From assembly GCA_964016885.1 (NCBI GenBank), contig CAXHJY010001577.1:936-64935 (forward strand): 64,000 nt of DNA, read 5' to 3'. Position 1 is the stretch's first letter. Each line of letters opens with the position of its first letter. Under the pieces are notes generated by a model that was not told the DNA's origin, made no database searches, and saw only the letters and a program-made list of their open reading frames with translations. Below are positions 1 through 59,741 of the stretch, piece by piece. Origin of the DNA: Eledone cirrhosa (taxonomy: Eukaryota). The translations under genes and the position numbers were made by a program.

Positions 1-2078
1 TATCTCCAAATTATTTGTCGAGCAATATTGGCCATGACTGCTGCTATGGTAGCAGGCAGGCCGCTGTCTTATTAGCAAACCACTTTCCACTGATTGACCT
101 CGATGTCACGTGATTGATTCTTTTTGAATTTGCCACCGACGCAGAGGCAGTGATTTTCTCTATGGCTAGGAATTCAGTCCACGCTTTGCTATTTTCTATC
201 CACTGCATTATTTTATTAATAAGTTTCCAGATTCCACGCTTTCCCTGGATACTTAGATGAGAATAGTCTTCCCTGACGACGGAATGATTCTCTTTGTTTT
301 CTTCGGAAAATATATTTATTCCATTCCAGAAACTAATTAGTTGGAAGTGATATTTTAGTAAGTAAGTTAATTTATAATTTTCTTATTTTACGTCTCTCAT
401 ATTATTGTTCTGCAACCCCATGCGTTGAACCACAAAGTTAGTAAGACAAAAATCTATATATTTGCTAGCATTGATATGCATCTGTATGTATATATATGTT
501 ACTAGATATTAATTCTTTATAATTATCTCCAAATTATTTGTCGAGCAATATTGGCCATGACTGCTGCTATGGTAGCAGGCAGGCCGCTGTCTTATTAGCA
601 AACCACTTTCCACTGATTGACCTCAGATGTCACGTGATTGATTCTTTTGAATTTGCCACCGACTCAGAGGCAGCGATTTCTCTATGGCTAGGAATTCAGT
701 CCACGCTTTGCTATTTTCTATCCACTGAATTATTTTTTAATAAGTTTCCAGAGTCCAACACTTTGCCTGGATACTTAGATGAGAATAGACTTCCCTGACG
801 ACGGAATGATTCTGCATGTTTTCTTCGAAAATATATTTATTCCATTCCAAAAACTAATTAGTTGGAAGTGATATTTAGTAAGTAAGTTAATTTATAATTT
901 CTTATTTTATGTCGTCTCTCATATTATTGTTCTGCAACCCATGCATTGAACCACAAAGTTTGTTACTTGGTATTAAATATTTATATATATGCTAGCATTG
1001 ATATGCAATCTGTATGTATATATATGTTGTTATTCTTTATTTATTATTGTCTCCATATTATTTGTTCGGAGCAATGATTTGGCAATGTAGGCATGAGTGC
1101 TAGCTATGGATAGCAGGCAGGCCGCTGTCTTATTAGCAAACACTGTATTGAATACTTGATGTACGTGACGTGATTGATTCTTTAGATTGCCACCGGACGC
1201 AGAGGCAGTGATTTTCTATGGCTAGGAATTCAGTCCACGCTTCTTTGATATTGGATCTGGGTTGGTATTTGTATTAATAAGTTTCCAGATTCCACGCTTC
1301 CGCTGTGATACTTAGATGAGAATAGTCTTCCCTGACGACGGAATGATTCTCTTTGTTTTTCTTCGGAAATATATTTATTTGTGGGGGTGGGGAGTGTGTG
1401 GAGGTGGTTGGATGAGTGAGTTGGAAGTGATATTTTAGTATGAAGTTATTTTATAGTATTAATATTATGTTATATTTACGTTGTTCTTGTTGGAACCAGG
1501 TAGTTGATCGTTGCTAGCATTGATATGCATTGTCTGTATGTATATATTGTTACTAGATATTTAATTCTTTATAATTATCTCAAATTATTTGTCGAGCAAT
1601 ATGGCCATGACTGATGCTATGGTAAGCATGTGCGCTGTCTTATTAGCAAACCTTTCACTGTTGACATTGACCTCGATGTCCGTGATTGATCTTTTGAATT
1701 TGCACCGACTCAGAGGCAGCGATTTTCTGGTAGGGCTATTCAGTCGCTTTGTATTTTCTAATCCACTGAATTATTTTTTAATAAGTTTCCAGAGTCCACA
1801 CTTTGCCTGGATACTTAGATGAGAATAGACTTCCCTGACGACGGAATGATTCTGCATGTTTTCTTCGGAAAATATATTTATTCCATTCCAGAATCTAATT
1901 AGTTGGAAGTGATATTTTAGTAAGTAAGTTAATTTTGTAATTTTCTTATTTTACGTCTCTCATATTAATGTTCTGCAACCCCCATGCATTGAACCACATA
2001 GTTACTAAGACAAAACCTATATATTTGCTAGCATTGATATGCATCTGTATGTATATATATGTTACTAGATATTAATTA
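1..2078 (+). repeat. Tandem array of ~522-bp HHR-containing unit (family A), ~4 copies, partly error-rich
   Basis: TATCTCCAAATTATTTGTCGAG recurs at 1, ~524, ~1048 and ~1576; copy 3 has many indels; mirror image of 7086-9166. Confidence 0.95.
268..347 (+). ncRNA. Type I hammerhead ribozyme, family A (one per unit)
   Basis: Stem I CTTCC/GGAAG; core CTGACGA (273-279); stem II GGAATG/CATTCC with internal C(TTCG)G hairpin; GAAA (329-332); palindromic stem III AACTAATTAGTT; GUU cleavage triplet. Confidence 0.8.
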
Positions 2079-2079
2079 T

Positions 2080-3865
<1,786 letters not shown>

Positions 3866-4556: not shown

Positions 4557-4590
<34 letters not shown>

Positions 4591-7018: not shown

Positions 7019-7085
<67 letters not shown>
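5313..7085. repeat. (TA)n microsatellite
   Basis: Direct inspection. Confidence 0.98.
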
Positions 7086-7086
<1 letters not shown>

Positions 7087-9470
7087 ATAATTAATATCTA
7101 GTAACATATATATACATACAGATGCATATCAATGCTAGCAAATATATAGGTTTTGTCTTAGTAACTATGTGGTTCAATGCATGGGGTTGCAGAACATTAA
7201 TATGAGAGACGTAAAATAAGAAAATTACAAAATTAACTTACTTACTAAAATATCACTTCCAACTAATTAGATTCTGGAATGGAATAAATATATTTTCCGA
7301 AGAAAACATGCAGAATCATTCCGTCGTCAGGGAAGTCTATTCTCATCTAAGTATCCAGGCAAAGTGTGGACTCTGAAACTTATTAAAAAATAATTCAGTG
7401 GATAGAAAATAGCAAAGCGTGGACTGAATTCCTAGCCATAGAGAAAATCGCTGCCTCTGAGTCGGTGGCAAATTCAAAAAGAATCAATCACGTGACATCG
7501 AGGTCAATCAGTGGAAAGTGGTTTGCTAATAAGACAGCGGCATGCCTGCTACCATAGCAGCAGTCATGGCCAATATTGCTCGACAAATAATTTGGAGATA
7601 ATTATAAAGAATTAATATCTAGTAACATATATATACATACAGATGCATATCAATGCTAGCAAATATATAGATTTTGTCTTAGTAACTTTGTGGTTCAACG
7701 CATGGGGTTGCAGAACAATAATATGAGAGACGTAAAATAAGAAAATTATAAAATTAACTTACTTACTAAAATATCACTTCAACTAATTAGTTTCTGGAAT
7801 GGAATAAATATATTTTCCGAAGAAAACAAAGAGAATCATTCCGTCGTCAGGGAAGACTATTCTCATCTAAGTATCCAGGGAAAGCGTGGAATCTGGAAAC
7901 TTATTAATAAAATAATGCAGTGGATAGAAAATAGCAAAGCGTGGACTGAATTCCTAGCCATAGAGAAAATCACTGCCTCTGCGTCGGTGGCAAATTCAAA
8001 AAGAATCAATCACGTGACATCGAGGTCAATCAGTGGAAAGTGGTTTGCTAATAAGACAGCGGCCTGCCTGCTACCATAGCAGCAGTCATGGCCAATATTG
8101 CTCGACAAATAATTTGGAGATAATTATAAAGAATTAATATCGAGTAACATATATATACATACAGATGCATATCAATGCTAGCATATATATAGGTTTTGTC
8201 TTAGTAACTTTGTGGTTCAATGCATGGGGTTGCAGAACAATAATATGAGAGACGTAAAATAAGAAAATTATAAAATTAACTTACTTACTAAAATATCACT
8301 TCCAACTAATTAGTTTTTGGAATGGAATAAATATATTTCCGAAGAAAACATGCAGAATCATTCCGTCGTCAGGGAAGTCTATTCTCATCTAAGTATCCAG
8401 GCAAAGTGTGGACTCTGGAAACTTATTAAAAAATAATTCAGTGGATAGAAAATAGCAAAGCGTGGACTGAATTCCTAGCCATAGAGAAAATCGCTGCCTC
8501 TGAGTCGGTGGCAAATTCAAAAAGAATCAATCACGTGACATCGAGGTCAATCAGTGGAAAGTGGTTTGCTAATAAGACAGCGGCCTGCCTGCTACCATAG
8601 CAGCAGTCATGGCCAATATTGCTCGACAAATAATTTGGAGATAATTATAAAGAATTAATATCTAGTAACATATATATACATACAGATGCATATCAATGCT
8701 AGCAAATATATAGATTTTGTCTTACTAACTTTGTGGTTCAACGCATGGGGTTGCAGAACAATAATATGAGAGACGTAAAATAAGAAAATTATAAAATTAA
8801 CTTACTTACTAAAATATCACTTCCAACTAATTAGTTTCTGGAATGGAATAAATATATTTTCCGAAGAAAACAAAGAGAATCATTCCGTCGTCAGGGAAGA
8901 CTATTCTCATCTAAGTATCCAGGGAAAGCGTGGAATCTGGAAACTTATTAATAAAATAATGCAGTGGATAGAAAATAGCAAAGCGTGGACTGAATTCCTA
9001 GCCATAGAGAAAATCACTGCCTCTGCGTCGGTGGCAAATTCAAAAAGAATCAATCACGTGACATCGAGGTCAATCAGTGGAAAGTGGTTTGCTAATAAGA
9101 CAGCGGCCTGCCTGCTACCATAGCAGCAGTCATGGCCAATATTGCTCGACAAATAATTTGGAGATAATTATAAAGAATTAATATCGAGTAACATATATAT
9201 ACATACAGATGCATATCAATGCTAGCATATATATAGGTTTTGTCTTAGTAACTTTGTGGTTCAATGCATGGGGTTGCAGAACAATAATATGAGAGACGTA
9301 AAATAAGAAAATTATAAAATTAACTTACTTACTAAAATATCACTTCCAACTAATTAGTTTTTGGAATGGAATAAATATATTTTCCAAAGAAAACATGGAG
9401 AATCATTCCGTCGTCAGGGAAGTCTATTCTCATCTAAGTATCCAGGCAAAGCGTGGACTCTGGAAACTTA
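7086..9470 (-). repeat. Family A ~522-bp tandem array, antisense, ~4.6 copies
   Basis: Reverse complement of the unit; first HHR at 7255-7336; two variants alternate. Confidence 0.97.
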
Positions 9471-9475
9471 TAGCA

Positions 9476-10486
9476 AACCACAAAGTTACTAAGACAAAAC
9501 CTATATATTTGCTAGCATTGATATGCATCTGTATGTATATATATGTTACTAGATATTAATTCTTTATAATTATCTCCAAATTATTTGTCGAGCAATATTG
9601 GCCATAACTCCTGCTATGGTAGCAGGCAGGCCGCTGTCTTATTAGCAAACCACTTTCCACTGATTGACCTCGATGTCACGTGATTGATTCTTTTTGAATT
9701 TGCCACCGACGACGAGGCAGTGATTTCTTCTATGGCTAGGAATTCAGTCCACGCTTTGCTATTTTCTATCCACTGAATTATTTTTTAATATGTTTCCAGA
9801 GTCCACGCTTTGCCTGCATACTTAGATGAGAATAGTCTTCCCTGACGACGGAATGATTCTCCATGCTCTCTTCGGAAAATATATTTATTCCATTCCAGAA
9901 ACTAATTAGTTGGAAGTGATAATTTAGTAAGTAAGTTAATTTTGTAATTTTCTTATTTTACGTCTCTCATATTATTGTTCTGCAACCCCATGCATTGAAC
10001 CACAAAGTTACTAAGACAGAACCTATATATTTGCTAGCATTGATATGCATCTGTATGTATATATATATGTTACTAGATATTAATTCTTTATAATTAACTC
10101 CAAATTATTTGTCGAGCAATATTGGCCATGACTGCTGCTATGGTAGCAGGCAGGCCGCTGTCTTATTAGCAAACCACTTTCCACTGATTGACCTCGATGT
10201 CACGTGATTGATTCTTTTTGAATTTGCCACCGACGCAGAGGCAGCGATTTTCTCTATGGCTAGGAATTCAGTCCACGCTTTGCTATTTTCTATCCACTGA
10301 ATTATTTTTTAATAAGTTTCCAGAGTTCACGCTTTGCCTGGATACTTAGATGAGAATAGTCTTCCCTGACGACGGAATGATTCTCCATATTTTCTTCGGA
10401 AAATATATTTATTCCATTCCAGAAACTAATTAGTTGGAAGTGATATTTTAGTAAGTAAGTTAATTTTATAATTTTCTTATTTTACG

Positions 10487-10496
<10 letters not shown>
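9476..10496 (+). repeat. Family A array, sense, ~2 copies, joined head-to-head to the preceding array
   Basis: Orientation switch at GGAAACTTA-TAGC-AAACCACAAAG; ends TTACGTCTCTCATAT into (TA)n. Confidence 0.95.
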
Positions 10497-10528: not shown

Positions 10529-10631
10529 GGTGGCTACCAACTCGTTTTCGAGTCGGCCACTATTTTATATCCATGTAGGAGAACCCCTACCGATGCGCTG
10601 AACAACTGACTTTTTCGTCAAACCAGCGACT

Positions 10632-11036
10632 TGTCCTCTCAACAACCATTATCTTGAAAAAAACTTAGTCTACGAATGTAAAGTTATAACTGACACCAAT
10701 TCCTTTACTTATTTTGGTTCCACTTCCACCTCCTTTAAAGCTTGTCTTTATAATCATCATTCGTCTTTTAAATACCCACTTAAAAGAACCAACACGGCAC
10801 TCTCAGAACTCGCATGGTCCTTGAAAGACAAAAATATTAACTATAACATCTCTTGGAAGAAGGTTTGTTCTGCTTCTTCATACTTGAATAGTTCTCTATC
10901 CAAGACATGCAATCTTTGTTTATGTGAAAATTTTACCATTATATCTAACTTAGATTCTATAATAAATAGACGCACTGACTTGTTTTCTCTCTGCTTGCAT
11001 AAATTCCATAGAACATTCCATAAAGTATACATCTAA
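10632..11036 (+). pseudogene. GIY-YIG endonuclease 3' remnant of a Penelope-like element (Naiad-like)
   Basis: Manual translation CPLNNHYLEKNLVYEC...YFGSTSTSFK...NHHSSF...ALSELAWSLKD continuing into the listed ORF (ISWK...CNLCLCE...INRR...CLH). Confidence 0.85.
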
Positions 11037-12023
11037 TATCTAATACTTTATCAATGTAAAATCCTTTTCTCAAAGACACATATATATACATATATATTTC
11101 TTTAAAAATATACCCATCTCTCTACCTTATTTCAATGTTATTTATTATACATATATAATACTAGTTACTCATTCTATATCACTCCTATTTATCACTTCCC
11201 TTTCTTTCTTTTTTCCTTTTTTATTTTCTTTTTTTATTTTTATTTTAATTTCTAACCCCTAATCTGTACCTTTTCTTCCTAGATACTTCTCAATTATCAT
11301 TGTGCCTAACGTAGAAACAATTATTACTCAGCACAATATATTCTTACTTTATATCACCTTGAAAAAATCCTTCGTAAACATAAACATTTTTTTGACGTTA
11401 GATTATTCATCCTCAATTCATTATTTTTTTCTACCTTTCATGCTCATCTAACTTACACATATTACACTTATTCATCCACTCTTCTACTTCTTTCACAATA
11501 TATCCTTAATTACATTACTATTGCTATATGTTTTATATTTTTTAATAATACATATCAACAATTTCTTTCCATCGCACATATTATTAAACCCTTAAATATT
11601 ATTCTTAATACATATTAACAATTTCTTTTCATCGCACATATTATTAAACCCTTAAATATACAAACCTTAATTTAACATTATTCTAAATCTTTCTCTTCGT
11701 TAATTTTCAAATTCTTTAAATTTATATATTATCTTCCAACGGTTTTTCAACCTCTCTATGTAAAACAATATATTTTTCTCAGCTATAAAAGCTATCTCTC
11801 TCTCTCTATCACTCATCTCTCCTCCTATCTCATCCTTCCTCATTATACTCCTCCCCCTCCACTTTTTACTCTCATCTGCTCCTCTTTTTCATCCTTTCCA
11901 TCCCCCCACCCCCGCCCCTCAATTTTTTCCCAATATCACACATCACTCTAAAACTACTTTTCATATGTTGATTTAAAACTGCACTATTCACAAATGTGTT
12001 TTAACCTTCATATCATGTCTCCC

Positions 12024-12094
12024 TATTTTATCTGACGAAAACGCAAATGTTATTGCATGATGATATTTGTTTCTGAAATGCGCATAATAAAATA
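12024..12094 (+). ncRNA. Type I hammerhead ribozyme at the 3' end (pLTR) of the Naiad-like remnant
   Basis: TATTTTAT-CTGACGA-long stem II-GAAA-TGCGCA-TA-ATAAAATA; palindromic stem III ATGCGCAT. Confidence 0.82.
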
Positions 12095-12125
12095 CATGGA
12101 ACTCTTTTAACCATCTTTTGATCTT

Positions 12126-13032: not shown

Positions 13033-14257
13033 TCTATACTATAAAGCTCACTGCCATATGTAGGTAACAAACTATCCGCCAAACGGCTGGACCAAACAGC
13101 ACCAAATTTGCACCATAGATGTAACTTTTTCTGAATAAATAAGTGATGGTATTGTTGCTTACGGAATTTTGTTAAAAGATTAAAGACATTATTTAAATAT
13201 TCACTTCTTTAAAATTTCACATGTCAACACTTCCGGTTATACGTCATTCCTCACTTTTTTTATGACGTCGCACAGCATTCCTCTATTTTTCTTAGTCTGT
13301 ATGACTGGCTGTCTGCATTAGATAACATTTTTCGAAGTATTTACTTCTGCGTTCACAGACTGATTTTTTCAGTTTCAGAAGATCCCGTTAAGGGTGAAAG
13401 CAGCGATTCTTTGCTTAAACTTTTATCTTTTATTTTAATATATATATTCGTGTACAGATATTTTTTGCATACACAAAAACAAAAGCCTATTTATTTCACG
13501 AAAGCACAGAAGGCTTATCTTCATTGTTACTGTTCGAGGTTAGAAGACCACAATCTTTCCAAGATCTGAGAACCATCAATGGCCATCAATGTTCAACTTA
13601 CCGTTTGGCTTGCCAGATGCGTGGTATGTTACACAATGGCAGCCAGTGGCATCTCACCCTGCAAGAAGCAGCAACTTCTAAAGTCCCTTCTCAGCTGCGA
13701 AAACTGTTATGTTATTATTTTGCACAACTGTGATCTCGCCGACCCTCTCGAGATGTGGAACAACCACCGCGAAAGTCTAACTGAAGACATCCTCCACCGT
13801 ACACGCAGACACAATCCGAACGTAACATACGATATCGTTTCCAACGAGGCGCTCATTTGTCTTGAAAACAGTGTCCTGGAGTTTGGTGGTAGGCCTCTAG
13901 GTCACTACAGCTTATCTGCTTCTGACAGGAGTGTCCAGAATTGAACGTCTACAGAGCTTCCCCGTGAGACGAGCTACGAAATCAGTGATTCTCCCATGGT
14001 CAATTGTATGTAGGATGCTCTAGGGTTAGCTCGCCAAACAATCTCTTCATCTTTGCTCCGGAGTTCCGAACAAAAAATATTGTATACTTTGACGCTCTAA
14101 CAGTGTAATTTAAATATTTTCTGTTACTTGGAATTTCCATTATGGTTGTACAAATTATTGTTTGTTAAAATATGTGTCCTGTTGACAGTTTATTGTTGTA
14201 ACTATCAATTTCCTTTAACGTACTGGCTGCTAGACTGGGGAATACCGGGCCAGCTAG
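13033..14257 (+). mobile_element. Internally deleted Helitron
   Basis: A|TC start, CTAG|T end after a short GC hairpin; Rep-Hel linker fragments (PQSFQDLRTING...YRLAC; DPLEMWNNHRESLTED) and a helicase C-terminal GQLYVGCSRV...KNIVY fragment near 13990-14090. Confidence 0.85.
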
Positions 14258-14272
14258 TATATATATATATAT

Positions 14273-15034
14273 AGTAGAGCCAGATTTGATAGTACACAGG
14301 TATACTATATTTGATTCCAGGCATCTATTCTTTAGTGGGCATTTATCCGGTAGGTGGCAGTTACACTTGGAGGCCTTCCTGTGTGCAGGTTTCCCGTTGC
14401 GGTTCTGTATGTTGTTAGGGGCGGGATGGGATTTAGGTTTACTAGTGTTTTGTTTTGATGTGCCCAGGCGTGCGGACGGTTGTGATGCTGTTATGTGTTT
14501 GCGTTTTGTATTTGGTGCTACGGTGTATGTTGGTAGATTACATTATTTAGAAATTCTTTTATAGTTGATTTTATGTATGTGTGATTCTATATTAGCTGCA
14601 GTAGAGTAAGAGAGTTTGATAGTTTTTCTGTTAAAGATTCTATGGTATTTGTGTAGTTTAGGGAAGTGCTTGTCGATTAATTTAAAGAATTTAGGAGGTT
14701 GGGTGGTTTTTAAGGAAGAGTTGAAAATTGGATTGAACCTTAAATGTTTCCTACCTTGGGGTTTTCTGGAGTTTCTAGAGATCAACATAGTGGTTGGTTT
14801 GGCTATTTCGTGTGTCTGTTGCCTATTTCTATGTTTAGTTCTATATTTGTTACTCCTGTAGGTTCGGGTGGTGCAGTTGTCGTTAGGTTTGTATTTGTAG
14901 TTGCTGTCTCTATCGGGTATGTATTTGAGCCCTTCCTTGTGGCCTGCCTTACATAAAGCTATAACTTCGATTACTACTATCATCAGTGACCGTATTTTTT
15001 TATTATTTTTTATTATTGTTGTTATTGTTTTCAT
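14273..15034 (-). pseudogene. Naiad-like Penelope fragment (RT thumb end, linker, Cys-rich motif, start of GIY-YIG)
   Basis: RFNPIFNSSLKT...FFKLIDKHFP...IFNRKTIKLSYS; manual translation downstream CNCHLPDKCPLKNRCLESNIVY. Confidence 0.85.
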
Positions 15035-21059: not shown

Positions 21060-21784
21060 ATAAACGGAAAAAATGAAACGAAATTTTATTTCTCACACTT
21101 AGTACGGCTGTTATTTAAATATAAGTATGTATACGTAGATACATATATTTATACAGACGTACAGTAGTATGTATATATATATACATACATGCACACACAT
21201 ATATATATGTACGTATGGATTCACCGAACATTTATTATAATGCTCGGTGTGTTTAAACAAACAACTCGAATTAAGCCGTACAGTGTCTAGCCACCATCGT
21301 TGCTCATTTGTTCAAAACTGACAAAGGAACGCTGTACTAGTTTCAAGCTTATTAGCTATCGTCAGCAACGTATACCTTCCTGCCAGATGGTTGAACGTCT
21401 GAAAGTATATACTTTCCTTATGCATATTAACGGCTGAGCAGCCTAATTTGCATATCGAGTGAGTTAATCGGCCGGGGTACCGAAAACGATAAACGGAAAA
21501 AATGAAACGAAATTTCATTTCTCACTGATAGTACGGCTGTTACTTAAATATAAGTATGTATACGTACATAAATATATGTATACAGACGTACAGTAGTATG
21601 TATATATACATACATATATGTACGTATGGATTCACCGAACATTTATTATAATGCTCGGTGTGTTTGTAAACAAACAACCCGAATTAAGCCGTACAGTGTC
21701 TAGCAACCAATGTTGCTCATTTGTTCAAAACTGACAAAGGAACGCTGTACTAGTTTCAAGCTTATTAGCTATCGTCAGCAACGT
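21060..21784 (-). repeat. Family F HHR tandem repeat, ~413-430-nt unit, ~1.7 copies; HHRs at 21329-21371 and 21742-21784
   Basis: Minus strand ACGTTG-CTGACGA-TAGCTAATAAGCTT-GAAA-CTAG-TA-CAGCGT occurs twice, 413 nt apart. Confidence 0.85.
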
Positions 21785-24700
21785 ATCCACTGAATTATTT
21801 TTTAATAAGTTTCCAGAGTTCTCGCTTTGCCTGGAAACTTAGACGAGAATAGACTTCCCTGACGACGGAATGTTTCTCAGTATCTTACTCCATTCCAGAA
21901 ACTAATTAGTTGGAAGTGATATTTTAGTAAGTAAGTTAATTTTATAATTTTCTTATTTTACGTCTCTCATATTATTGTTCTGCAACCCCATGCATTGAAA
22001 CACAAAGTTACTAAAACAAAACCTATATATTTGCTAGCATTGATATGCATCTGTATGTATATATATGTTACTAGATATTAATTCTTTATAATTATCTCCA
22101 AATTATTTGTCGAGCAATATTGGCCATGACTGCTGCTATGGTAGTAGGCAGGCCGCTGTCTTATTAGCAAACCACTTTCCACTGATTGACCTCTATGTCA
22201 CGTGTTTGATTCTCTTTAAATTTGCCACAGACGCAGAGGCAGTGATTTTCTCAATGGCTAGGAATTCAGTCCACGCTTTGCTATTTCCTATCCACTGAAT
22301 TATTTTTTAATAAGTTTCCAGAGTCCTCGCTTTGCCTGGAAACTTAGACGAGAATAGACTTCCCTGACGACGGAATGTTTCTCAATATCTTCTTCGGAAA
22401 ATATATTTACTCGATTCCAGAAACTAATTAGTTGGAAGTGATATTTTAGTAAGTAAGTTAATTTTATAATTTTCTTATTTTACGTCTCTCATATTATTGT
22501 TCTGCAACCCCATGCATTGAACCACAAAGTTACTAAGACAAAACCTATATATTTGCTAGCATTGATATGCATCTGTATGTATATATATGTTACTAGATAT
22601 TAATTCTTTATAATTATCTCCAAATTATTTGTCGAACAATATTGGCCATGACTGCTGCTATGGTAGTAGGCAGGCCGCTGTCTTGTAAGCAAACCACTTT
22701 CCACTGATTGACCTCGATGTCACGTGTTTGATTCTCTTTGAATTTGCCACAGACGCAGTGATTTTCTCAATGGCTAGGAATTCAGTCCACGCTTTGCTAT
22801 TTCCTATCCACTGAATTATTTTTTAATAAGTTTCCAGAGTCCTCGCTTTGCCTGGAAACTTAGACGAGAATAGACTTCCCTGACGACGGAATGTTTCTCA
22901 ATATCTTCTTCGGAAAATATATTTACTCGATTCCAGAAACTAATTAGTTGGAAGTGATATTTTAGTAAGTAAGTTAATTTTATAATTTTCTTATTTTACG
23001 TCTCTCATATTATTGTTCTGCAACCCCATGCATTGAACCACAAAGTTACTAAGACAAAACCTATATATTTGCTAGCATTGATATGCATCTGTATGTATAT
23101 ATATGTTACTAGATATTAATTCTTTATAATTATCTCCAAATTATTTGTCGAACAATATTGGCCATGACTGCTGCTATGGTAGTAGGCAGTCCGCTGTCTT
23201 GTAAGCAAACCACTTTCAACTGATTGACCTCGATGTCACGTGTTTGATTCTCTTTAAATTTGCCACAGACGCAGAGGCAGTGATTTTCTCAATGGCTAGG
23301 AATTCAGTCCACGCTTTGCTATTTCCTATCCACTGAATTATTTTTTAATAAGTTTCCAGAGTCCTCGCTTTGCCTGGAAACTTAGACGAGAATAGACTTC
23401 CCTGACGACGGAATGTTTCTCAATATCTTCTTCGGAAAATATATTTACTCGATTCCAGAAACTAATTAGTTGGAAGTGATATATTAGTAAGTAAGTTAAT
23501 TTTATAATTTTCTTATTTTACGTCTCTCATATTATTGTTCTGCAACCCCATGCATTGAACCACAAAGTTACTAAGACAAAACCTATATATTTGCTAGCAT
23601 TGATATGCATCTGTATGTATATATATGTTACTAGATATTAATTCTTTATAATTATCTCCAAATTATTTGTCGAACAATATTGGCCATGACTGCTGCTATG
23701 GTAGTAGGCAGGCCGCTGTCTTGTAAGCAAACCACTTTCCACTGATTGACCTCGATGTCACGTGTTTGATTCTCTTTGAATTTGCCACAGACGCAGTGAT
23801 TTTCTCAATGGCTAGAAATTCAGTCCACGCTTTGCTATTTCCTATCCACTGAATTATTTTTTAATAAGTTTCCAGAGTCCTCGCTTTGCCTGGAAACTTA
23901 GACGAGAATAGACTTCCCTGACGACGGAATGTTTCTCAATATCTTCTTCGGAAAATATATTTACTCGATTCCAGAAACTAATTAGTTGGAAGTGATATTT
24001 TAGTAAGTAAGTTAATTTTATAATTTTCTTATTTTACGTCTCTCATATTATTGTTCTGCAACCCCATGCATTGAACCACAAAGTTACTAAGACAAAACCT
24101 ATATATTTGCTAGCATTGATATGCATCTGTATGTATATATATGTTACTAGATATTAATTCTTTATAATTATCTCCAAATTATTTGTCGAACAATATTGGC
24201 CATGACTGCTGCTATGGTAGTAGGCAGGCCGCTGTCTTGTAAGCAAACCACTTTCCACTGATTGACCTCGATGTCACGTGTTTGATTCTCTTTGAATTTG
24301 CCACAGACGCAGTGATTTTCTCAATGGCTAGAAATTCAGTCCACGCTTTGCTATTTCCTATCCACTGAATTATTTTTTAATAAGTTTCCAGAGTCCTCGC
24401 TTTGCCTGGAAACTTAGACGAGAATAGACTTCCCTGACGACGGAATGTTTCTCAATATCTTCTTCGGAAAATATATTTACTCGATTCCAGAAACTAATTA
24501 GTTGGAAGTGATATTTTAGTAAGTAAGTTAATTTTATAATTTTCTTATTTTACGTCTCTCATATTATTGTTCTGCAACCCCATGCATTGAACCACAAAGT
24601 TACTAAGACAAAACCTATATATTTGCTAGCATTGATATGCATCTGTATGTATATATATGTTACTAGATATTAATTCTTTATAATTATCTCCAAATTATTT

Positions 24701-25581
24701 GTCGAACAATATTGGCCATGACTGCTGCTATGGTAGTAGGCAGGCCGCTGTCTTGTAAGCAAACCACTTTCCACTGATTGACCTCGATGTCACGTGTTTG
24801 ATTCTCTTTGAATTTGCCACAGACGCAGTGATTTTCTCAATGGCTAGAAATTCAGTCCACGCTTTGCTATTTCCTATCCACTGAATTATTTTTTAATAAG
24901 TTTCCAGAGTCCTCGCTTTGCCTGGAAACTTAGACGAGAATAGACTTCCCTGACGACGGAATGTTTCTCAATATCTTCTTCGGAAAATATATTTACTCGA
25001 TTCCAGAAACTAATTAGTTGGAAGTGATATTTTAGTAAGTAAGTTAATTTTATAATTTTCTTATTTTACGTCTCTCATATTATTGTTCTGCAACCCCATG
25101 CATTGAACCACAAAGTTACTAAGACAAAACCTATATATTTGCTAGCATTGATATGCATCTGTATGTATATATATGTTACTAGATATTAATTCTTTATAAT
25201 TATCTCCAAATTATTTGTCGAACAATATTGGCCATGACTGCTGCTATGGTAGTAGGCAGGCCGCTGTCTTGTAAGCAAACCACTTTCAACTGATTGACCT
25301 CGATGTCACGTGTTTGATTCTCTTTGAATTTGCCACAGACGCAGAGGCAGTGATTTTCTCAATGGCTAGGAATTCAGTCCACGCTTTGCTATTTCCTATC
25401 CACTGAATTATTTTTTAATAAGTTTCCAGAGTCCTCGCTTTGCCTGGAAACTTAGACAAGAATAGATTTCCTTGACGACGGAATGTTTCTCTATATCTTC
25501 TTCGGAAAATATATTTACTTCATTCCAGAAACTAATTAGTTGGAAGTGATATTTTAGTAAGTAAGTTAATTTTATAATTTT
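21785..25581 (+). repeat. Family A tandem array, ~7.3 copies of 516/522 bp
   Basis: Unit starts at 22093, 22615, 23131, 23653, 24169, 24685 and 25201; HHR e.g. 22358-22439. Confidence 0.97.
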
Positions 25582-25598
25582 CTTATTTTACGTTTCTC

Positions 25599-25858
<260 letters not shown>

Positions 25859-25876
25859 ATATACCTATATATATAC

Positions 25877-25961
<85 letters not shown>

Positions 25962-25992
25962 CATATATATATATACATATATATATATATAC

Positions 25993-26221
<229 letters not shown>

Positions 26222-26366
26222 TATATGAAAAGTGTAAGTTTCTACACAAAACGAAGGTTATAGAGAAAATTGAGGTTGGTAATGGCACATGGAATATATA
26301 AGAGACAGAATACTTTTTTGTGAAAAAACATAATTTTATAAGGTAAGAAAATAATAAAGGGTATAA

Positions 26367-27642: not shown

Positions 27643-29925
27643 CTATTGGGGTGATAACCCGTTTAGTTTTGGTTTAAATTTGTTAAGGAATAGATTTTCT
27701 TTGTTTATTCTTTGTTGTTGTGTGAACGAATCTGAGCACTTGTAGAAGGGGAAGATTTTAAAGTTGGGTAGTGTCATTCCTGCGCAGTTCGCAATATGGC
27801 TGCTCAAGGGGATTTTTCTTGTGTTAGCGTCCCGGATTTGTTGGCGGTGGATGGTCATTCTTTTGCGTAATGAGGTGCCCGTCTGTCCTATGTAGTTGTG
27901 TTTGCACCCACCGCAAGTTATTGCGTAAATCAAGTTCTCCGAGTTGCAGGTGAAATTGTTTTTTACTGTAAATGTTTGGCCATCTTTGAATGTAAATGTT
28001 TGTCCTTCAGTGAGGTAGAGGCACGTTCCACAGTTTGTTCTACCACATTTGGTAACTGTAGGGTTGAGGATTGGTTTGGGTATATTTGGTCCAGTGAGAA
28101 TGCGTTTAAGTGATTTGGGTTGTCTTTTACTTTTAAGGATCTTGTGTGTTTCAAGAATAGACTTAATTTTTACATCTTTAAGTAGGATGGGGAGGTTTTT
28201 GTGTAGGTGATCAAACATTTCGGTATTTCTGGGGTTGAAAGTGGATACATATGGCAGGGTGTTGAGTGTGGTTTTCTGTTTTGGATTGTTAAGTTGATGG
28301 GGATTTAGGTGTTTTGCCCTGTCTATTCCATTGTTGATTATTTCAAGTGGAAAGGCTCTTAAGATAAGGGTGTCTTTTAGTTCCTTTAGTCTTTGCTCCC
28401 GTTTAGGTGGATCTGATACTATGGTACATATACGTTTGGCCAAATTGTAAGGAATGTTAAGTTTTGTATGTTTTGGGTGACTTGATGTGAAAAAGAGGTA
28501 TTGCTTGGAATCTGTGGGTTTATAGAATATATCTGTATCTAATTTCCCGTCTATTACAGAGATGAGAATATCCAAGAAGGCTAATTCCTTAGGATTGGAT
28601 TCCATTGTGAATTGTATGTTATTATCTATGTTGTTTATCATGTTTTTAAACGTAGTAAGTGAGTTCATGTCTTCTTGCCATAGGATAAAGCAGTCGTCTA
28701 GATATCTTTTCCAATTGGCTTTGAGGTGTGTGTGGAAAGAGTCTCCAAATAAGAGAAGGGACTGACTGTATATTTGTTGTTCATGGAATCCCATGACTAG
28801 GTTGGCATATGTGGGTGCTACTTTCGTGCCCATTGCCGTACCTGATACTTGTCTGTATGTTGAACCATTGAATGTGAAGTAGTTATTTTGTAGGATAAAG
28901 CGGAGTCCGTCAGTGATAAAATCTGTGTTGATGCGTGTCGGTATTTCTGATGGGTGTGTGTTAAGCCAGTATTGGACTGCTGTTATTCCATAGTTGTGAG
29001 GTATGTTTGTGTAGAGGTTTATTACGTCAAAGGAGACAAGAATTGTATTTGCACTTACTGTTTTAGGGAGGTGTTTCAGCATGTCAAGGTCATCTCGTAT
29101 GTAGCTCTGTATATGTTGTAGAAAGGGTTTCAGTAGGATGTCCAGAAAGTTGCTAAGTCTGTGGGTTTCACATGTAGGGCCTGCTATAATTGGCCTGAGT
29201 TTTAGGTCTTCTGGTGGTGTTAGTTCAATGTAATTGTTGGTTGAGGTGTCACATGCATCGTTTATGGGTTTACATTTGTGAAGTTTCGGTAAGCCATAAA
29301 AAGAGCTTGTATTGCATTTGAAGTGGCTTATATAGTTAAACTCTTTTGTGGTTAAGCTGTTGCGGTATTTATTCAGTAAGGTCAAAAGGTTCCCCATTGT
29401 TTTGGTGTGTTTGTAGTTTTCTGTTTTTTCATAGTATGTGTTGTTTTCTAAAATGTTAAGTGCGAGGGTCCTATAGTAGTCCGTATTCATAATCACAACA
29501 GTACTGCCTTTATCGACTTCTTTGATAGTTATCTCAGGGTTGTTTCTAAGTGTGAATAATTCTTCCCATTCGTGTGTAGATAGGTTTGATTTCGTGTGTT
29601 TATTTGTAATTTTTTCATAGGGAAAGTTGGTGATGTGTTCGCAGTACGTGTCCAGTGCTTTATTTCTTCCCTTTTGTGGGCAGAAATTGCTTTTATTTCT
29701 AACCAGTGATTCGTCTTCAGTGTTGGTGTCGTTGTGGAAGAATTCCGTTAGTCGCAGCTTTCGGCAGTATTCCATGATGTCATCCTTCATTTCGGGGAAG
29801 TTTGGTTTACGTGGTGTAGGTGTAAATTTCAGGCCCTTACTTAAAATGTTGATTTGTGTGTTGGTTAGAGGTGTCTTTGAGAGGTTGATTATTTTTGGTT
29901 TCTCCTGAGGGGGGGGGGGGGCCAT
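27643..29925 (-). CDS. PLE reverse transcriptase plus GIY-YIG endonuclease (760 aa, uninterrupted)
   Basis: [70 protein letters not shown]; CGRTNCGTC linker; LIYAITC..C...YIGQT. Confidence 0.96.
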
Positions 29926-31023
29926 CGAGTATCCTGGTATTTCAGGCTTTTCCCTAAAAAAGGAATGTAGTTTTGTGTGTGATTATATTTTGTTGGTCTG
30001 TTGCGTGTGGGTCTGTAGCTTGTTGTTTCATGAGGGTGAATGTGATGGTGGGGGTGGTATGTGTTGTGGTTGTTGATGAGCAAGGGTTCTGTTGTTGGTT
30101 CATGTGGTCTGGGTGCGTTATTTCTGTGGTACAGAGTGTTGAGGCTGGGGGGTTGTCTTTTGTTGGATTGAGGGTGATGTCTGGTGTGGTTGTGGGTAAG
30201 TTCTGTTGTGATTTCAAGTGGCCTGGGTGGATTTCTTCTGAGGAATGTGGTGTGTGTGTTGTGAGTTGGATCTATGTTATTTCGTCGTTGGTTTATGTAG
30301 GGGGCATTTCTACGGAAACCTGTGTTGTGGTGGTTGGGTGTGTTTCTTTTGGTGTAGTTGGCCGTATTTGGTTTGTGTTGGTGGGGGATGTGCCTGTGGT
30401 TAGTGTGTGTTGGGTTTGGTGGTGTAAATGTGTCTGTTGTAGTTCTTGTTATGTTCAAATGCTTTATAAAGGGGTTACCTGTTTGGTGCGTCCTTTTAAA
30501 GTCTTCTTCATATTTGAGGAACCAGTTTTCGGATTTTTCCCACCGTTTAAGGGAAATAGTTTCTGCATTCTCGCAGTCCTGTTTCCACGATTTGATTAAA
30601 TTTTGTAGGGTTGTTCCCTCGGCCTTTTTAGTGCATTCTTCCTCCATATTTTTATCAGTATCCTTATACACTTGCTCGTTTGAGGTGGCCCTTAATTTTA
30701 GGAGTTCTATTTCCATGTTTATACTGTTGAGTGACATTTGTTCACGGAGTTTTCTTTCTGGTTCAGGTTCGTTTGTAATATGCTTTATTTGGAATTTACG
30801 TGGTAAAACTATCGGTGTTGAGTTAATCCATTTTTGGTAAATTCCAGCTTTGTTGAGGTTTTTTATCATATTCCAGAAAGTGAATTTTCTGGTTTTTAGA
30901 TGTTTTTTCCAGAGGTGTCCCATTTGGTTTTTGATATGGAGCAATGTCGTTTGTTCTGTGTTGGTATTCATAAGTTTTTCGATGGAGTTGCATACGTTTT
31001 GAACGTTTAAATAAATTTGGTTG
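29889..31023 (-). CDS. PLE upstream ORF1 (helical region, then H/N/P/T/R-rich low-complexity tail), overlapping ORF2; first non-repeat Met at 30971
   Basis: Non-microsatellite part of the 641-aa ORF; LPRKFQ motif; ends ...PFLGKS... Confidence 0.75.
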
Positions 31024-32837: not shown

Positions 32838-33178
32838 CAACAACTATATCAACAACTATATCAACAACTATAGAATATATGTATATATATATATATACAT
32901 ATATATACATATTTATAGAATATATGTATATATATATATATACATATATATACATATTTATATACATATTTCCTCTCCCAATCAGCATAATCAACCACAC
33001 AAAAAACCAATTAAACCACGCTATAGGATTAAAAGACACCTATGAAGAAATAATAGATAAATAAACGACAGCTATCTATTCGCGATCAACAACTATAGAA
33101 TATTTACCCAGTATTTCTAATAGCACGTGGAAATCAATTAAATATATCGTCAACCATACACATATATATATATATATA

Positions 33179-34730
33179 TGAATATAGACATAGAATATTC
33201 GAAAATATTCTGTATGTTTATAATAAACATTTTGAAGACCTAATCGCTATAGAATAGAATACGTCACGTATTACAATTAGATTCTCGATAAAAGCAAGGG
33301 AAGTAATCTACGCGTTTCATTCTCGTTAGAAATCATCAGGACTACATATCCAGTGCTTTTATCGAGAATGACACAGCTAGAGACTTATAGAATACTTAGC
33401 TGTGTACAGGAACTGGTTTGAAAGAGCGGTTGCCGGTCCGGCAGAAATTAGAAATTGGAATAAATGCTCTGAAATAGCGATATATATGTGAATATAGACA
33501 TAGAATATTCGAAAATATTCTGTATGTTTATAATAAACATTTTGAAGACCTAATCGCTATAGAATAGAATACGTCACGTATTACAATTAGATTCTCGATA
33601 AAAGCAAGGGAAGTAATCTACGCGTTTCATTCTCGTTAGAAATCATCAGGACTACATATCCAGTGCTTTTATCGAGAATGACACAGCTAGAGACTTATAG
33701 AATACTTAGCTGTGTACAGGAACTGGTTTGAAAGAGCGGTTGCCGGTCCGGCAGAAATTAGAAATTGGAATAAATGCTCTGAAATAGCGATATATATGTG
33801 AATATAGACATAGAATATTCGAAAATATTCTGTATGTTTATAATAAACATTTTGAAGACCTAATCGCTATAGAATAGAATACGTCACGTATTACAATTAG
33901 ATTCTCGATAAAAGCAAGGGAAGTAATCTACGCGTTTCATTCTCGTTAGAAATCATCAGGACTACATATCCAGTGCTTTTATCGAGAATGACACAGCTAG
34001 AGACTTATAGAATACTTAGCTGTGTACATGAACTGGTTTGAAAGAGCGGTTGCCGGTCCGGCAGAAATTAGAAATTGGAATAAATGCTCTGAAATAGCGA
34101 TATATATGTGAATATAGACATAGAATATTCGAAAATATTCTGTATGTTTATAATAAACATTTTGAAGACCTAATCGCTATAGAATAGAATACGTCACGTA
34201 TTACAATTAGATTCTCGATAAAAGCAAGGGAAGTAATCTACGCGTTTCATTCTCGTTAGAAATCATCAGGACTACATATCCAGTGCTTTTATCGAGAATG
34301 ACACAGCTAGAGACTTATAGAATACTTAGCTGTGTACAGGAACTGGTTTGAAAGAGCGGTTGCCGGTCCGGCAGAAATTAGAAATTGGAATAAATGCTCT
34401 GAAATAGCGATATATATGTGAATATAGACATAGAATATTCGAAAATATTCTGTATGTTTATAATAAACATTTTGAAGACCTAATCGCTATAGAATAGAAT
34501 ACGTCACGTATTACAATTAGATTCTCGATAAAAGCAAGGGAAGTAATCTACGCGTTTCATTCTCGTTAGAAATCATCAGGACTACATATCCAGTGCTTTT
34601 ATCGAGAATGACACAGCTAGAGACTTATAGAATACTTAGCTGTGTACAGGAACTGGTTTGAAAGAGCGGTTGCCGGTCCGGCAGAAATTAGAAATTGGAA
34701 TAAATGCTCTGAAATAGCGATATATATGTG
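33179..34730 (-). repeat. Family H 310-bp HHR tandem array, 5 copies; HHRs at 33303-33345 and every +310
   Basis: AATATAGACA at 33181, 33491, 33801, 34111 and 34421; one substitution seen (34029). Confidence 0.98.
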
Positions 34731-35789
34731 AATACGTGACGTATTCTATTCTATAGCGATTAGGTCTTCAAAATGTTTATTATAAACATACAGAATATTT
34801 TCGAATATTCTATGTCTATATTCACATATATATCGCTATTTCAGAGCATTTATTCCAATTTCTAATTTCTGCCGGACCGGCAACCGCTCTTTCAAACCAG
34901 TTCCTGTACACAGCTAAGTATTCTATAAGTCTCTAGCTGTGTCATTCTCGATAAAAGCACTGGATATGTAGTCCTGATGATTTCTAACGAGAATGAAACG
35001 CGTAGATTACTTCCCTTGCTTTTATCGAGAATCTAATTGTAATACGTGACGTATTCTATTCTATAGCGATTAGGTCTTCAAAATGTTTATTATAAACATA
35101 CAGAATATTTTCGAATATTCTATGTCTATATTCACATATATATCGCTATTTCAGAGCATTTATTCCAATTTCTAATTTCTGCCGGACCGGCAACCGCTCT
35201 TTCAAACCAGTTCCTGTACACAGCTAAGTATTCTATAAGTCTCTAGCTGTGTCATTCTCGATAAAAGCACTGGATATGTAGTCCTGATGATTTCTAACGA
35301 GAATGAAACGCGTAGATTACTTCCCTTGCTTTTATCGAGAATCTAATTGTAATACGTGACGTATTCTATTCTATAGCGATTAGGTCTTCAAAATGTTTAT
35401 TATAAACATACAGAATATTTTCGAATATTCTATGTCTATATTCACATATATATCGCTATTTCAGAGCATTTATTCCAATTTCTAATTTCTGCCGGACCGG
35501 CAACCGCTCTTTCAAACCAGTTCCTGTACACAGCTAAGTATTCTATAAGTCTCTAGCTGTGTCATTCTCGATAAAAGCACTGGATATGTAGTCCTGATGA
35601 TTTCTAACGAGAATGAAACGCGTAGATTACTTCCCTTGCTTTTATCGAGAATCTAATTGTAATACGTGACGTATTCTATTCTATAGCGATTAGGTCTTCA
35701 AAATGTTTATTATAAACATACAGAATATTTTCGAATATTCTATGTCTATATTCACATATATATCGCTATTTCAGAGCATTTATTCCAAT
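34731..35789 (+). repeat. Family H 310-bp array, sense, ~3.4 copies
   Basis: AATACGTGAC at 34731, 35041, 35351 and 35661; reverse complement of the preceding array. Confidence 0.98.
34968..35010 (+). ncRNA. Minimal type I hammerhead, family H (also 35278-35320, 35588-35630)
   Basis: GTAGTC-CTGATGA-TTTCTAACGAGAAT-GAAA-CGCG-TA-GATTAC; palindromic ACGCGT stem III; GUA triplet. Confidence 0.9.
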
Positions 35790-36870: not shown

Positions 36871-39420
36871 TCATCCCTTGAGGAGTGTAAGCAAAAATCC
36901 ATTCCTGCTCCCTGCGTGGGAACAGGCAACATAAAGTTGGCCATGGGAGAAGCATGGCTCCCCCAAATGGATGCCCGCCACCGACAATGTTTGCCCTTGT
37001 GATTTGTTAATGGACATGGCAAAACATGGTCTCACCGGGAATTGGGATCGCCGGAAATCGAACTGGATATCTGACGCCGAGGGGAAAAAGTTCATACTTG
37101 GAATGAAAACATTCTCCCCTCCCGCGTACCCCGTTACAACGGTGGCCTCAATCAAGTGGGGCGTCAGTGACTTGACGACCATGCGAGTACCGTTGCACTG
37201 CTTTGGTGGACGCAAGTTCCTTATTAGAATAATGGGACAGCCAACCCTAAGCTTAAGAATGTGAGGTGGGAGCCCTGGGGGCTCAAGGGAATTTAATAAC
37301 TTAACCGGATAATTAACGATATCGTCGAGGTCTGACGTCCGGTAGATACATTTGAAGATGTGTTCTTTACCGGGAAACTTCTCAATCAACTGCTCCTTAA
37401 TAAAATTAACCATGGTATTTTTCGGAGCAAGGATGTCTCTTTGGCTGAGCCAATCGAGGTTTTTAAATTTAGATGAGACATTAGGAAAAAACTGCTTCCC
37501 AAAGGTCAGAAGGGCTGCTCACAATGTTGCACAAGGAGTCGATTGCTATGCATCCGCAGGGACCTTGCCCTCACCAAGTGCTAAAATATTCTGAGCAAAT
37601 GCTGCAGACATGTTGTGACCATGCAAATGAGCACGCATATTTGTGCTCAGGTACAAACTCTTCACCTAGAGCCACAACATGCACGGCTTAAGGCAGGCAT
37701 GCACTTCATCCGCTCTTGTCCCTTTGGGTAAGACCGGCAGCGTTTGCCGAAAATCCCCTGATAGCAGAAGGGTTACGCCACCCATAGGAGCCGTAGAATC
37801 CCTAATGTCTTTCAGGGTCCTGTCCAAAGCCTCAAGGGCACCCTTGTGTGCCATTGTGCACTCATCCCAAACAATGAGACAACATTTTTTGAGAACCAGA
37901 GCTTCGTGTGAACTCTTGCTGATATTGCATGTTGGTGTCTCAGTTTTTACTAAATCCAAGAGGTGTTTAAAGGTTGAATGTGATGTCCTGCCTCCCGGCA
38001 ACAAAGTAGCAGCGATCCCGTACGATGCAACGGTCAACGCAATTTTTTTCTCCTGTCGAATCTTAGTGAGAATCCATTTCGTTACAAAAGTTTTTCCGGT
38101 ACCCCCAGATTTTGAAATCTGATTTTGAACCGCGTCAATGATAGTTAAATAGGCCAACCTTTGGTCCGACAGAAGTTTCGGCTCATTTTCCTCTAAGTAT
38201 TGGGGAAGAGATTCGATGTCATATGCTGTTTCCCGCAACAAATCCGGGGCCAACGTGTTAGCTTCCTCTCTGACGGTTGACGGCAAGCCCTACGTCGCCA
38301 ACTCACTCCCACCCATGTCGAGGAGAGCGTCCTCGATATCAATGAGTGCCCTGTTGTAGATAATGTCGCTGTAACCAACTTCCACTGAAGTATACTGCAG
38401 ATGAGCCAGGCGCAGGAAGTCCTCAGACATGAAGTCTCTGTACTTGACCCATAAAGATTTGGGATCACCCAATTCACATTTTTGAAGCAAAATGGCAAAG
38501 AGTTCCCGAAGACCTTTAGGTGATTTCAACAGAGCACCCTCTGCTAAAGTGGAATCCCATTGCGAACCAAAAGACCACGCTTAAAGCAGGCTTCCCGGTA
38601 CGTATCACATATTTCTCCATCAACAATTTTGAGGTCCTGAAAACTTTGTGGGCCTACAACTTCATGCAGAAGAAGGCGGAGATGAAAGCAGTCATGCTGA
38701 CTTGGGGGCACAGTGTAAACCCTTCCAAGACAGCTGTCAAATTTTACACCAGGATGTCTTTCAGCAGCCTTACCTGACTTTCTTCGCACCCGAATGTTTT
38801 TCGACCATATAAAGTAGGATGGAACCTGGGAGTACACAATTGTTTGCGCAAATGTATCGAACTGGCAAAGTTTGAAGAAACCCGTCAGAGTGGTCTCTTT
38901 CGCATCCGCGGCCAACTTGACGGCGGTTTGGTCCGTAAAGTAAACCCTTTGCCCATTTTCCAAATGTACCGCAAGCTGTACGATGGCGGGGTGACGTTGT
39001 TGTAGGGGTAAACCAAATAGTCGCCAAAAAGCTTCATTGCTACTGATGTACCTCCCCGCCATGTAATCTGTGATCTCGTCCCTGCTATTTTCAGTTTGAA
39101 ATGAGAACATTGCGGCATCAGAGCCCTTATTTACATATTTGCATATTTATTTTATCGACTTGACCGAGATGCAAAACTCAACGTTGATGTGGGCGTTGAA
39201 CATCTTCAAGAGAAGCGGGCAATAAGGGACCACCCATCTATTGTCGACTTGACCTCCCCTTACTGTTGTGGTGAAGCCACCGTTCTCGGGCCGTCTCCGC
39301 CTGTACAGGGGGTACCCGTCCCCACCAGTCTGAGTCTGGTCAACAAATTTTTTTGGGTATCCCTTACCGCAATGACATTAAATTTGGTAACGGATTAATT
39401 CAGACCTGCCAACCTCTAAA
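36871..39420 (-). pseudogene. Helitron Rep/PIF1-like helicase, broken by frameshifts and stops
   Basis: GYPLYRRR, VDNRWVVPY, HINVE, KYVNKGSD, RYISSNEAFWR, GGTGKTF, GGRTSHS, WDECTM, GDFRQTLPV, QFPVRPCFAMSINKSQGQT, HGQLYVACS. Confidence 0.93.
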
Positions 39421-49158: not shown

Positions 49159-49209
49159 AGATTCTACAGGACTAGAACTGTTTCATTCTTTAGAAATCAT
49201 CAGGAATCT
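49159..49209 (-). ncRNA. Hammerhead family I (single copy)
   Basis: AGATTC-CTGATGA-TTTCTAAAGAAT-GAAA-CAG TTCTAGTC CTG-TA-GAATCT. Confidence 0.85.
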
Positions 49210-54062: not shown

Positions 54063-56097
<2,035 letters not shown>

Positions 56098-59527: not shown

Positions 59528-59582
<55 letters not shown>

Positions 59583-59586
<4 letters not shown>

Positions 59587-59741
59587 AATTAGTATATCTA
59601 CTAACATATATATACAGATGCATACTTATGCCAGCAAATATATAGGTTTTGTCTTAGTAACTTTGTCGTTCAATGCATGGGGATGCAGAACAATAATATG
59701 AAAGACGTAAAATAAGAAAATTATAAAAATTAACTTACGTC

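Follow-up and report, generated by a model that had tools for sequence, protein, structure and literature searches.

The array of hammerhead-bearing repeats at positions 21785-25602 (forward strand) of a 64,000-nucleotide (nt) stretch of Eledone cirrhosa DNA (positions 936 to 64,935 of contig CAXHJY010001577.1, assembly GCA_964016885.1; below, the window is this whole stretch, and positions are numbered within it) is probably a non-LTR (non-long terminal repeat) retrozyme array, copied in trans into a (TA)n tract by a Penelope-like element (PLE) and lengthened locally afterwards. The repeat family to which it belongs, here called family A, has very likely spread by PLE-type retroposition. A first-pass annotation of the window had described a satellite at several loci; the several loci stand, but that description misses a dispersed retroposition whose marks are constant 3' ends, arms in inverted orientation and flanks of (TA)n, and family A is, judged by these marks, a dispersed retroposed family and not a plain satellite. 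The kind of element, a PLE-mobilised hammerhead repeat, is already known; no publication on family A itself was found in the literature searched, which covered few subscription journals and no supplements.

The array consists of 7.4 head-to-tail units with one type I hammerhead apiece; its seven full units are 505, 516, 522, 516, 516, 516 and 522 nt long, in that order, and are followed by a 205-nt end piece (unit 8). Unit coordinates below are positions in unit 3 (22806-23327), which served as the reference. The array lies where it had been annotated, except that its 3' limit is 25602 rather than 25581; there, at unit position 205, which is the "short" end of the family, it gives way to a (TA)n tract (25599-26226), and its 5' start is of the variable kind. 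The unit is non-coding (its longest ATG-started open reading frame (ORF) has 27 codons), has a GC content of 0.35, and showed no tRNA-derived part in a tRNA search (the primer-binding site and polypurine tract were not searched separately). Family A thus has the non-coding sequence with GC under 50% and without LTR or tRNA part that is expected of non-LTR retrozymes, and seven consecutive units carry a complete type I hammerhead where at least two are called for.

Searching the 3.0 Gb genome with the family A unit gave 1,792 candidates, 40 of which were scored, and the 27-nt ribozyme core has 1,735 exact matches in the genome and none in the reversed control, so the family also has the dispersed mobile copies expected of a retrozyme. 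Most of the insertions have 1-3 units. Ends were tallied for 39 of the 40 scored loci plus three window regions, which together make 43 insertions with 67 arms (a pair in L024 of the A2 type, described below, was left out). The 3' ends of these arms are fixed: 31 are short (unit position ~205), 30 are long (~323) and only 6 lie elsewhere, whereas the 5' ends are scattered. The two canonical ends lie 61 and 179 nt beyond the predicted ribozyme cut site, 118 nt apart, and both run into (TA)n at template sites that read ATAT or TATA; the flanks are (TA)n with a median pure run of 38 nt (70 flanks). More than half of the insertions (24/43) have two arms arranged head-to-head, six of them with one atypical end, and in every one of the 18 pairs with two canonical ends a short end is matched with a long one, so that none has two ends of the same kind (3.8e-6 under independence). 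A second set of loci, chosen by another criterion, gave 14 mixed pairs among 17 canonical ones. Fixed 3' ends, variable 5' truncation and an inverted arm are the structure expected from endonuclease-positive (EN+) PLEs.

The two arms of one insertion are also closely related. The mean distance is 1.2% inside an arm and rises to 2.3% for opposite arms and to 3.7% for different loci, and at 14 subfamily-diagnostic columns (overlapping duplicate loci removed, as also from the A2 and (CT)n counts below; the comparisons are non-independent) agreement is 779/860 within the same arm, 547/613 between opposite arms and 35,119/68,112 between different loci. Variants shared exclusively number 2.7 per kb within a locus as against 0.10 between loci (9/22 versus 65/1,836 arm pairs, counted with L015 and W3 left out, and in some counts L012 and W2 as well). 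This fits derivation of opposite arms from one RNA, or from RNAs of one source array. The template would have been circular or uncut, because arms longer than 61 or 179 nt cross the cut site; that it was in fact circular seems to us an even question.

Within the array itself units 5 and 6 are identical and unit 4 is one base away from them; edge units 1 and 8 are the most divergent, unit 8 differing from unit 2 at 7/205 positions, and unit 1 from it at 10 positions with indels in addition. The last piece in L012 and the first unit in the A2 array L096 are odd in the same way. The private variants from which the first-pass annotation had argued are real (a 6-bp deletion in units 2, 4, 5 and 6, and TTTCAAC in units 3 and 7), and it had taken them to imply several templates or later unequal exchange. 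Of these, local exchange fits better and several templates less so, because units 5 and 6 are identical and units 1 and 8 most different, because two other long arrays (L012, L096) have the same edge pattern, and because units within an arm agree at 779/860 diagnostic comparisons as against 52% between loci. The simplest reading of these sequences is that the array began as a short insertion and that unequal exchange or slippage has since multiplied its middle units.

The hammerheads of the full units lie, all on the forward strand, at 21853-21917 (unit 1), 22358-22439 (unit 2), 22874-22955 (unit 3), 23396-23477 (unit 4), 23912-23993 (unit 5), 24428-24509 (unit 6) and 24944-25025 (unit 7), with predicted cuts after 21911, 22433, 22949, 23471, 23987, 24503 and 25019, respectively; the predicted cut site falls after unit position 144. 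In unit 3 the order is stem I ACUUCC/GGAAGU (6 bp), CUGACGA, a C-A mismatch, stem II, GAAA, stem III and GUU. Stem II there is GGAAU/AUUCC (5 bp, 6 in most copies of the family) and encloses an inner hairpin closed by C(UUCG)G, a cap that had been attributed to every copy; unit 1, however, has an intact core but has lost the hairpin to a 17-nt deletion, and the copy at 9425 has C(UUUG)G. The 12-nt palindrome that had been equated with stem III is there, but stem III proper has only 3 bp (A15.1-U16.1, C-G and U-A) and an AAUU loop, and the palindrome also covers core A14 and U17. By comparison with the consensus in PMC3088659, the type I core (CUGANGA, GAA, A15.1-U16.1 and H17) is complete in units 1-7; the last, partial unit (25466-25547, forward strand) has U in place of core C3, and its hammerhead is likely inactive for this reason. 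A further hairpin, present in each unit on the 5' side of the hammerhead (22830-22860, forward strand, in unit 3), has a z score of -3.17, and 0/200 shuffles were equally stable. As a separate observation, three related loci (L153, L154, L156) carry an internal deletion that joins unit position 64 to 145, exactly at the predicted cut site.

The GUU triplet and the C-A at the base of stem II had been named as features that might inactivate the ribozyme. The worry that they reflect decay is weakened because both are family-wide and extend across subfamilies that are 78% alike: H17 is U in 153 of 161 copies (A in 6 and C in 2), and C10.1-A11.1 occurs in 157/161. Positions 10.1-11.1 are therefore not paired and the family A hammerhead is non-canonical there; the mismatch lowers "canonical" and not "works like", because mismatches (U-U) occur at this place in active natural hammerheads. 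An alignment of nine sequences, drawn from A, A2 and two forms in between, has pairing in 93.3% of its stem cells. One pair of stem II is found as GC, UA and CG and another as UA and GC, and stem I in A2 is shorter by one base on each side; in all, 4 pairs have changed on both sides, 2 of them by a single paired deletion in stem I, and stem III is invariant and so uninformative. The covariation score was reached by 0/500 shuffles, a control that sequence kinship inflates. Folding energy gives no such signal: the isolated family A motif is not more stable than its shuffles (z 0.70 and 0.25), and the A2 motif has z -3.15, yet in a fold that blocks the core. The predicted minimum-energy fold, distinguished from the hammerhead fold by an A14-U17 pair, is more stable than it by 1.3 kcal/mol. 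Rfam gave no gathering-level match in the window, and in 21700-23400 no hammerhead model even at E<=10. What supports a hammerhead beyond chance, as far as alignment and folding can tell, is thus the complete core plus the covariation, and not the energy. Two units could pair through the stem III palindrome in a predicted 10-bp duplex of -9.0 kcal/mol, and such a palindromic stem III is expected of ribozymes that act in pairs (PMC4209133; this paper and PMC3846280, PMC7229834, PMC8557442, PMC11167929 and 10.64898/2026.07.22.740005 are cited here and below for those of their sections that were available). The circular monomer has a predicted fold of -114 kcal/mol as against -96 +/- 6 kcal/mol in 40 shuffles. 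On balance we lean towards a family A ribozyme that is active in vivo. Natural hammerheads with GUU and C-A should in any case be of use for probing the limits of the core.

A sister subfamily, A2, has a 533-nt unit that is 78% identical to that of A, and 2,736 candidates in the genome. Its two-armed loci follow the same pairing (11/13 mixed, 2/13 atypical). At 10 of 13 A2 long ends (among them L052, L055, L058, L066, L067, L069, L073 and L096) a (CT)n run of 8-84 nt stands between the element and the (TA)n, and internal A2 copies have CTCT at this place in 25/25 cases. One further (CT)n run is found in L040, at an atypical start; among family A short ends with a longer CT seed beside TA, a 2-nt gain was seen in 1/23. 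This suggests that the enzyme slips repeatedly at the A2 long start site, and later DNA slippage may also be the source of the runs. The same stutter in family A would add TA, and would thus be invisible. It is tempting to generalise this, and we offer only as a tentative and on the whole unlikely proposition that a single circular hammerhead RNA serves as template for a PLE-type enzyme at both strands of a cleaved TA tract, that copying always begins at the short site on one strand and at the long site, 118 nt away, on the other, and that the enzyme stutters in the manner of telomerase at the long site, adding dinucleotide repeats. If this were true, retrozyme insertion would create or lengthen the microsatellites that abound in the genome, which are its own future targets; the literature searched yielded no publication in which a PLE enzyme adds repeats as it initiates.

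The sequence of events that would best account for these observations is as follows: tandem transcripts would be cut by hammerheads acting in pairs through the 10-bp stem III duplex, and the monomers may circularise. Both strands of a TA tract would be nicked by a PLE protein (reverse transcriptase plus endonuclease), each nicked 3' end would anneal to an AUAU/UAUA site of the same RNA (at ~205 or ~323) and prime cDNA, and the cDNA ends would be joined by microhomology, to one another or to the target. At the array locus only the short-end arm would be present, its middle units having multiplied later.

Several results weigh against this account, and some of them favour another one, namely PLE-type retroposition from uncut read-through transcripts, in which the hammerhead is slow or vestigial and is kept as a protein-binding or start signal, and the length of arrays is restored solely by local duplication. 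We consider this possible but rather improbable. It agrees with the fact that most arms pass the cut site unbroken, and with the homogenised middle units of long arrays. It also agrees with the GUU triplet, the C-A mismatch (which would fail the screen of Perreault 2011) and the A14-U17 pair of the competing predicted fold. Genome-wide patterns at three unit positions, with junctions counted by eye, showed that 5' ends are not enriched at the scissile bond, where a run-off peak would place them: 28 matches end at 143-145 (~16 junction events after removal of indels and duplicates), as compared with 13 at 132-134 (~10 events) and 223 at 161-163 (~46 junctions among the first 100 matches listed, this third pattern, itself 2 nt shorter, being confounded by a 4-bp deletion variant). 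In published work 8/9 frog retrozyme dimers were uncleaved in vitro, and hammerhead mutants still allowed PLE insertion in vitro (PMC11167929), so that insertion there is independent of the hammerhead. The covariation count is based on nine related sequences, and its two stem I changes are one paired 1-bp deletion. Against uncut templates stand the core and stems, which have been kept with compensatory changes across subfamilies 78% alike, the eight copies of 161 that have GUA or GUC, and the relatives in coral, mussel and axolotl, which are cut and circular in vivo (PMC7229834). In addition, both arms stop <=2 nt from the cut site in three loci (L132, L146 and L138), although the same arm stops could arise if a foldback lost its centre by deletion at the adjacent palindrome. 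Other points count against the proposed insertion process more generally. No empty target site was found for 35 insertions; there is no sense-strand excess of A>G, as RNA-editing scars would leave (53 A>G and 64 T>C); and 3 of the 17 canonical pairs in the second locus set are unmixed (L131 long plus long, L136 and L137 short plus short, the last two being near-by duplicates of the mixed L138).

A further difficulty, the lack of any sequence common to family A and 52 PLE loci of three protein families (12 Neptune-like, 15 + 5 and 20 from Hydra-type families; the genome holds many more PLE families), bears on where the family came from. Family A may be the terminal repeat (pLTR) of an autonomous PLE yet to be found, its arrays being ORF-less derivatives and its short copies 5'-truncated insertions. 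This idea overlaps the PLE-driven retrozyme explanation and concerns origin. Every structural feature of family A is a pLTR feature, and frog retrozymes match pLTRs in 24/57 families; where the loci were inspected, however, no unit ran 5' into PLE coding sequence (0/39 A loci and 0/21 loci from the A2 search, a sample biased to the best full-unit matches), and we regard the idea as doubtful. The Neptune-like family and the two Hydra-type families were themselves examined as possible drivers, and no sequence in common with family A was found in them.

The left neighbour of the array raises a third possibility. An arm of an unrelated hammerhead repeat, family B (21060-21786, reverse strand; unit ~414-428 nt, cores at 21778 and 21365), meets the array head-to-head through a 3-nt overlap and has its own long end in (TA)n. 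Family B (L157-L176; 1,508 candidates, a GUA site and U-U at the base of stem II) has two fixed ends, at 242 and 298 and thus 56 nt apart, which are combined in 11 mixed pairs; about 4 loci are irregular. The whole of 21060-25602 might be one event in which a PLE copied two RNAs on opposite strands, B from its long site and A from its short site; the head-to-head contact, the overlap and the two outer ends in (TA)n would follow, and B at its long end (298) with A at its short end obeys the pairing rule. This is, however, a single case in which chance odds are even, same-family pairs have a common template, and an insertion made later, with loss of target DNA, explains the junction with at least equal probability. 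Of other A arms that meet a foreign family, two in head-to-head contact are short plus short (L030, L039) and one is long plus long across a spacer (L049), and they give no support to co-insertion with foreign families as a rule. We think a joint event unlikely.

That the length of the array is an assembly artefact is very improbable: it lies on a small unplaced contig (64,935 nt) that has a foldback at its start, and units 5 and 6 are identical, but the substitutions among its units are patterned and are not random indels, and similar arrays (L012, L096) lie on large scaffolds. The number of units could be off by one or two. Least credible of all is a classical satellite, spread by DNA-level recombination or rolling-circle DNA amplification and carrying a chance or dead hammerhead, since this accounts for the local homogenisation inside long arrays but not for hammerhead covariation, nor for insertions of mostly 1-3 units at TA flanks with strand-polarised fixed ends, variable 5' ends and inverted arms, where long arrays at few loci free of retroposition marks would be expected.

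The window contains other copies of family A. Its hammerhead-bearing copies, put at about 18 in the first-pass annotation, number 19 (one of them partial): 4 at 265-1912, 5 at 7253-9425, 2 at 9834-10443 and 8 in the array. A second insertion has both arms, a long-end arm at 7080-9471 (reverse strand) ending in (TA)n at unit position ~323 and a short-end arm at 9476-10496 (forward strand) ending in (TA)n at 205, and a 5'-truncated fragment without ribozyme (unit 164-323) at 59580-59738 (reverse strand) has its long end in (TA)n. The suspicion that some copies are artefactual is probably right. An 11,035-nt palindrome begins at the first base of the contig (window 1-10100) with its centre in a TA run near 4580, and the four copies in its left half, at 1-2084 (forward strand), are the mirror image of 7080-9166. 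Because the palindrome starts where the contig starts and its left half has many indels (65 gap openings within 2.1 kb), the palindrome, and hence these four copies, is probably a read foldback artefact.

As to which PLE might drive family A, our best guess, by analogy, would be a Hydra-type element. Fragments of two Hydra-type families lie in the window: an abundant one at 10602-12125 (forward strand), with a hammerhead at 12032, and a second, older one represented by a frameshifted fragment at 14165-15034 (reverse strand). The abundant family has 57,822 candidates in the genome, a ~950-nt 3' untranslated region and a 95-nt tail. Its long copy L091 has an 808-residue frame with, read by eye, the motifs RW, NKT for DKT, CxCX5C, CxxC and CxH of the set given for Hydra PLEs in section 11 of PMC8557442; a Protein Data Bank search with the Hydra-type protein gave no match. 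The L091 hammerhead has a long stem II and a palindromic stem III, and the element has its ends ~39 and ~134 nt beyond the cut, between (TA)n flanks, so that this autonomous PLE and family A have the same design. The window also holds a Neptune-like frame for reverse transcriptase and endonuclease at 27643-29982 (reverse strand; 779 residues, RVT_1), overlapped by an upstream frame that reaches ~31000. Over 367 residues, more than 50 loci encode the identical protein; this PLE is very young, and a motif scan found no canonical hammerhead within about 850-900 nt of the ends of the frame. Family A has no ORF for reverse transcriptase plus GIY-YIG endonuclease and, having no ORF, is not an autonomous PLE.

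Other hammerhead repeats in the window are a 310-nt repeat at 33170-35789, whose 5 and 3.4 units (99-100% alike) form two arrays lying head-to-head, with a CGCG stem III; a 102-nt tandem unit at 54067-54329 and at 49203 (reverse strand), with stem III CAG..CTG and a palindromic loop, that has relatives in L030, L048 and L087; and a further family at 4202, 5012 (reverse strand) and 15973, with a long stem II and a TAGTC..GACTA stem III. Frames at 36871-39146 (reverse strand) resemble, by eye, fragments of what we take to be a Helitron/PIF1 helicase.

The likeness to newt satellite 2 and similar animal hammerhead repeats drawn in the first-pass annotation holds, and such repeats are now classed as non-LTR retrozymes (PMC7229834). 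Judged at the level of sequence, family A falls within the definition of these elements (PMC7229834; 10.64898/2026.07.22.740005) and appears to work like a non-autonomous PLE. Metazoan non-LTR retrozymes (those of coral, mussel and axolotl and the newt satellite 2 type) share with it the AT-rich units without coding sequence that stand head-to-tail and each carry one type I hammerhead, a weak stem III with a palindromic loop, and the presence of PLEs in the same genome, and axolotl HHR_Amex2 has a mismatch at the base of stem II as well (U-U there, C-A in A). The 522-nt unit compares with 150-450 nt in PMC7229834 and 51-972 nt in 10.64898/2026.07.22.740005. Family A differs in its 49-nt stem II region with an inner hairpin, its C-A mismatch and its GUU site. 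Its fixed ends and inverted arms are not described for retrozymes in the cited sections of those two papers.

These last features are instead familiar from EN+ PLEs, whose insertions are marked by inverted arms, 5' truncation and a one-sided tail (PMC3846280, PMC8557442), and which also share with family A partial tandems, microhomology or palindromes at the inner junction and, in Hydra and Naiad, (TA)n targets (PMC3846280, PMC8557442, PMC11167929). The tail is generated in vitro by two internal start sites of reverse transcription (PMC11167929). In family A the tail is one-sided in 18/18 and 14/17 canonical pairs of the two locus sets, but is 118 nt long where 30-40 bp would be expected, and family A has no ORF. 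The start sites of family A match the TA primer, whereas those of anole Poseidon are non-homologous to the cut DNA, and pairing is strictly one short with one long in family A whereas the two strands showed no difference for the PLE in vitro (PMC11167929). The minimal hammerheads of PLE terminal repeats likewise have a long helix II, an unpaired base at the 5' end of stem II and a small palindromic helix III, and are expected to act as dimers with low activity (PMC4209133); with its 6-bp stem I and 3-bp stem III family A stands between these and canonical hammerheads. Non-autonomous Chlamys elements such as MRC1 have 3' sequence in common with an autonomous family that is known, and most of them are without canonical hammerheads (PMC8557442), whereas no such partner of family A was found among the 52 PLE loci. 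Earlier publications have put forward the mobilisation of animal retrozymes by PLEs on the grounds of common ribozymes, co-occurrence and likeness to pLTRs, and their cited sections do not describe the insertion footprint; to that proposal family A contributes exact predictions, with starts at 205 and 323, one per strand, from one template, at sites that match TA.

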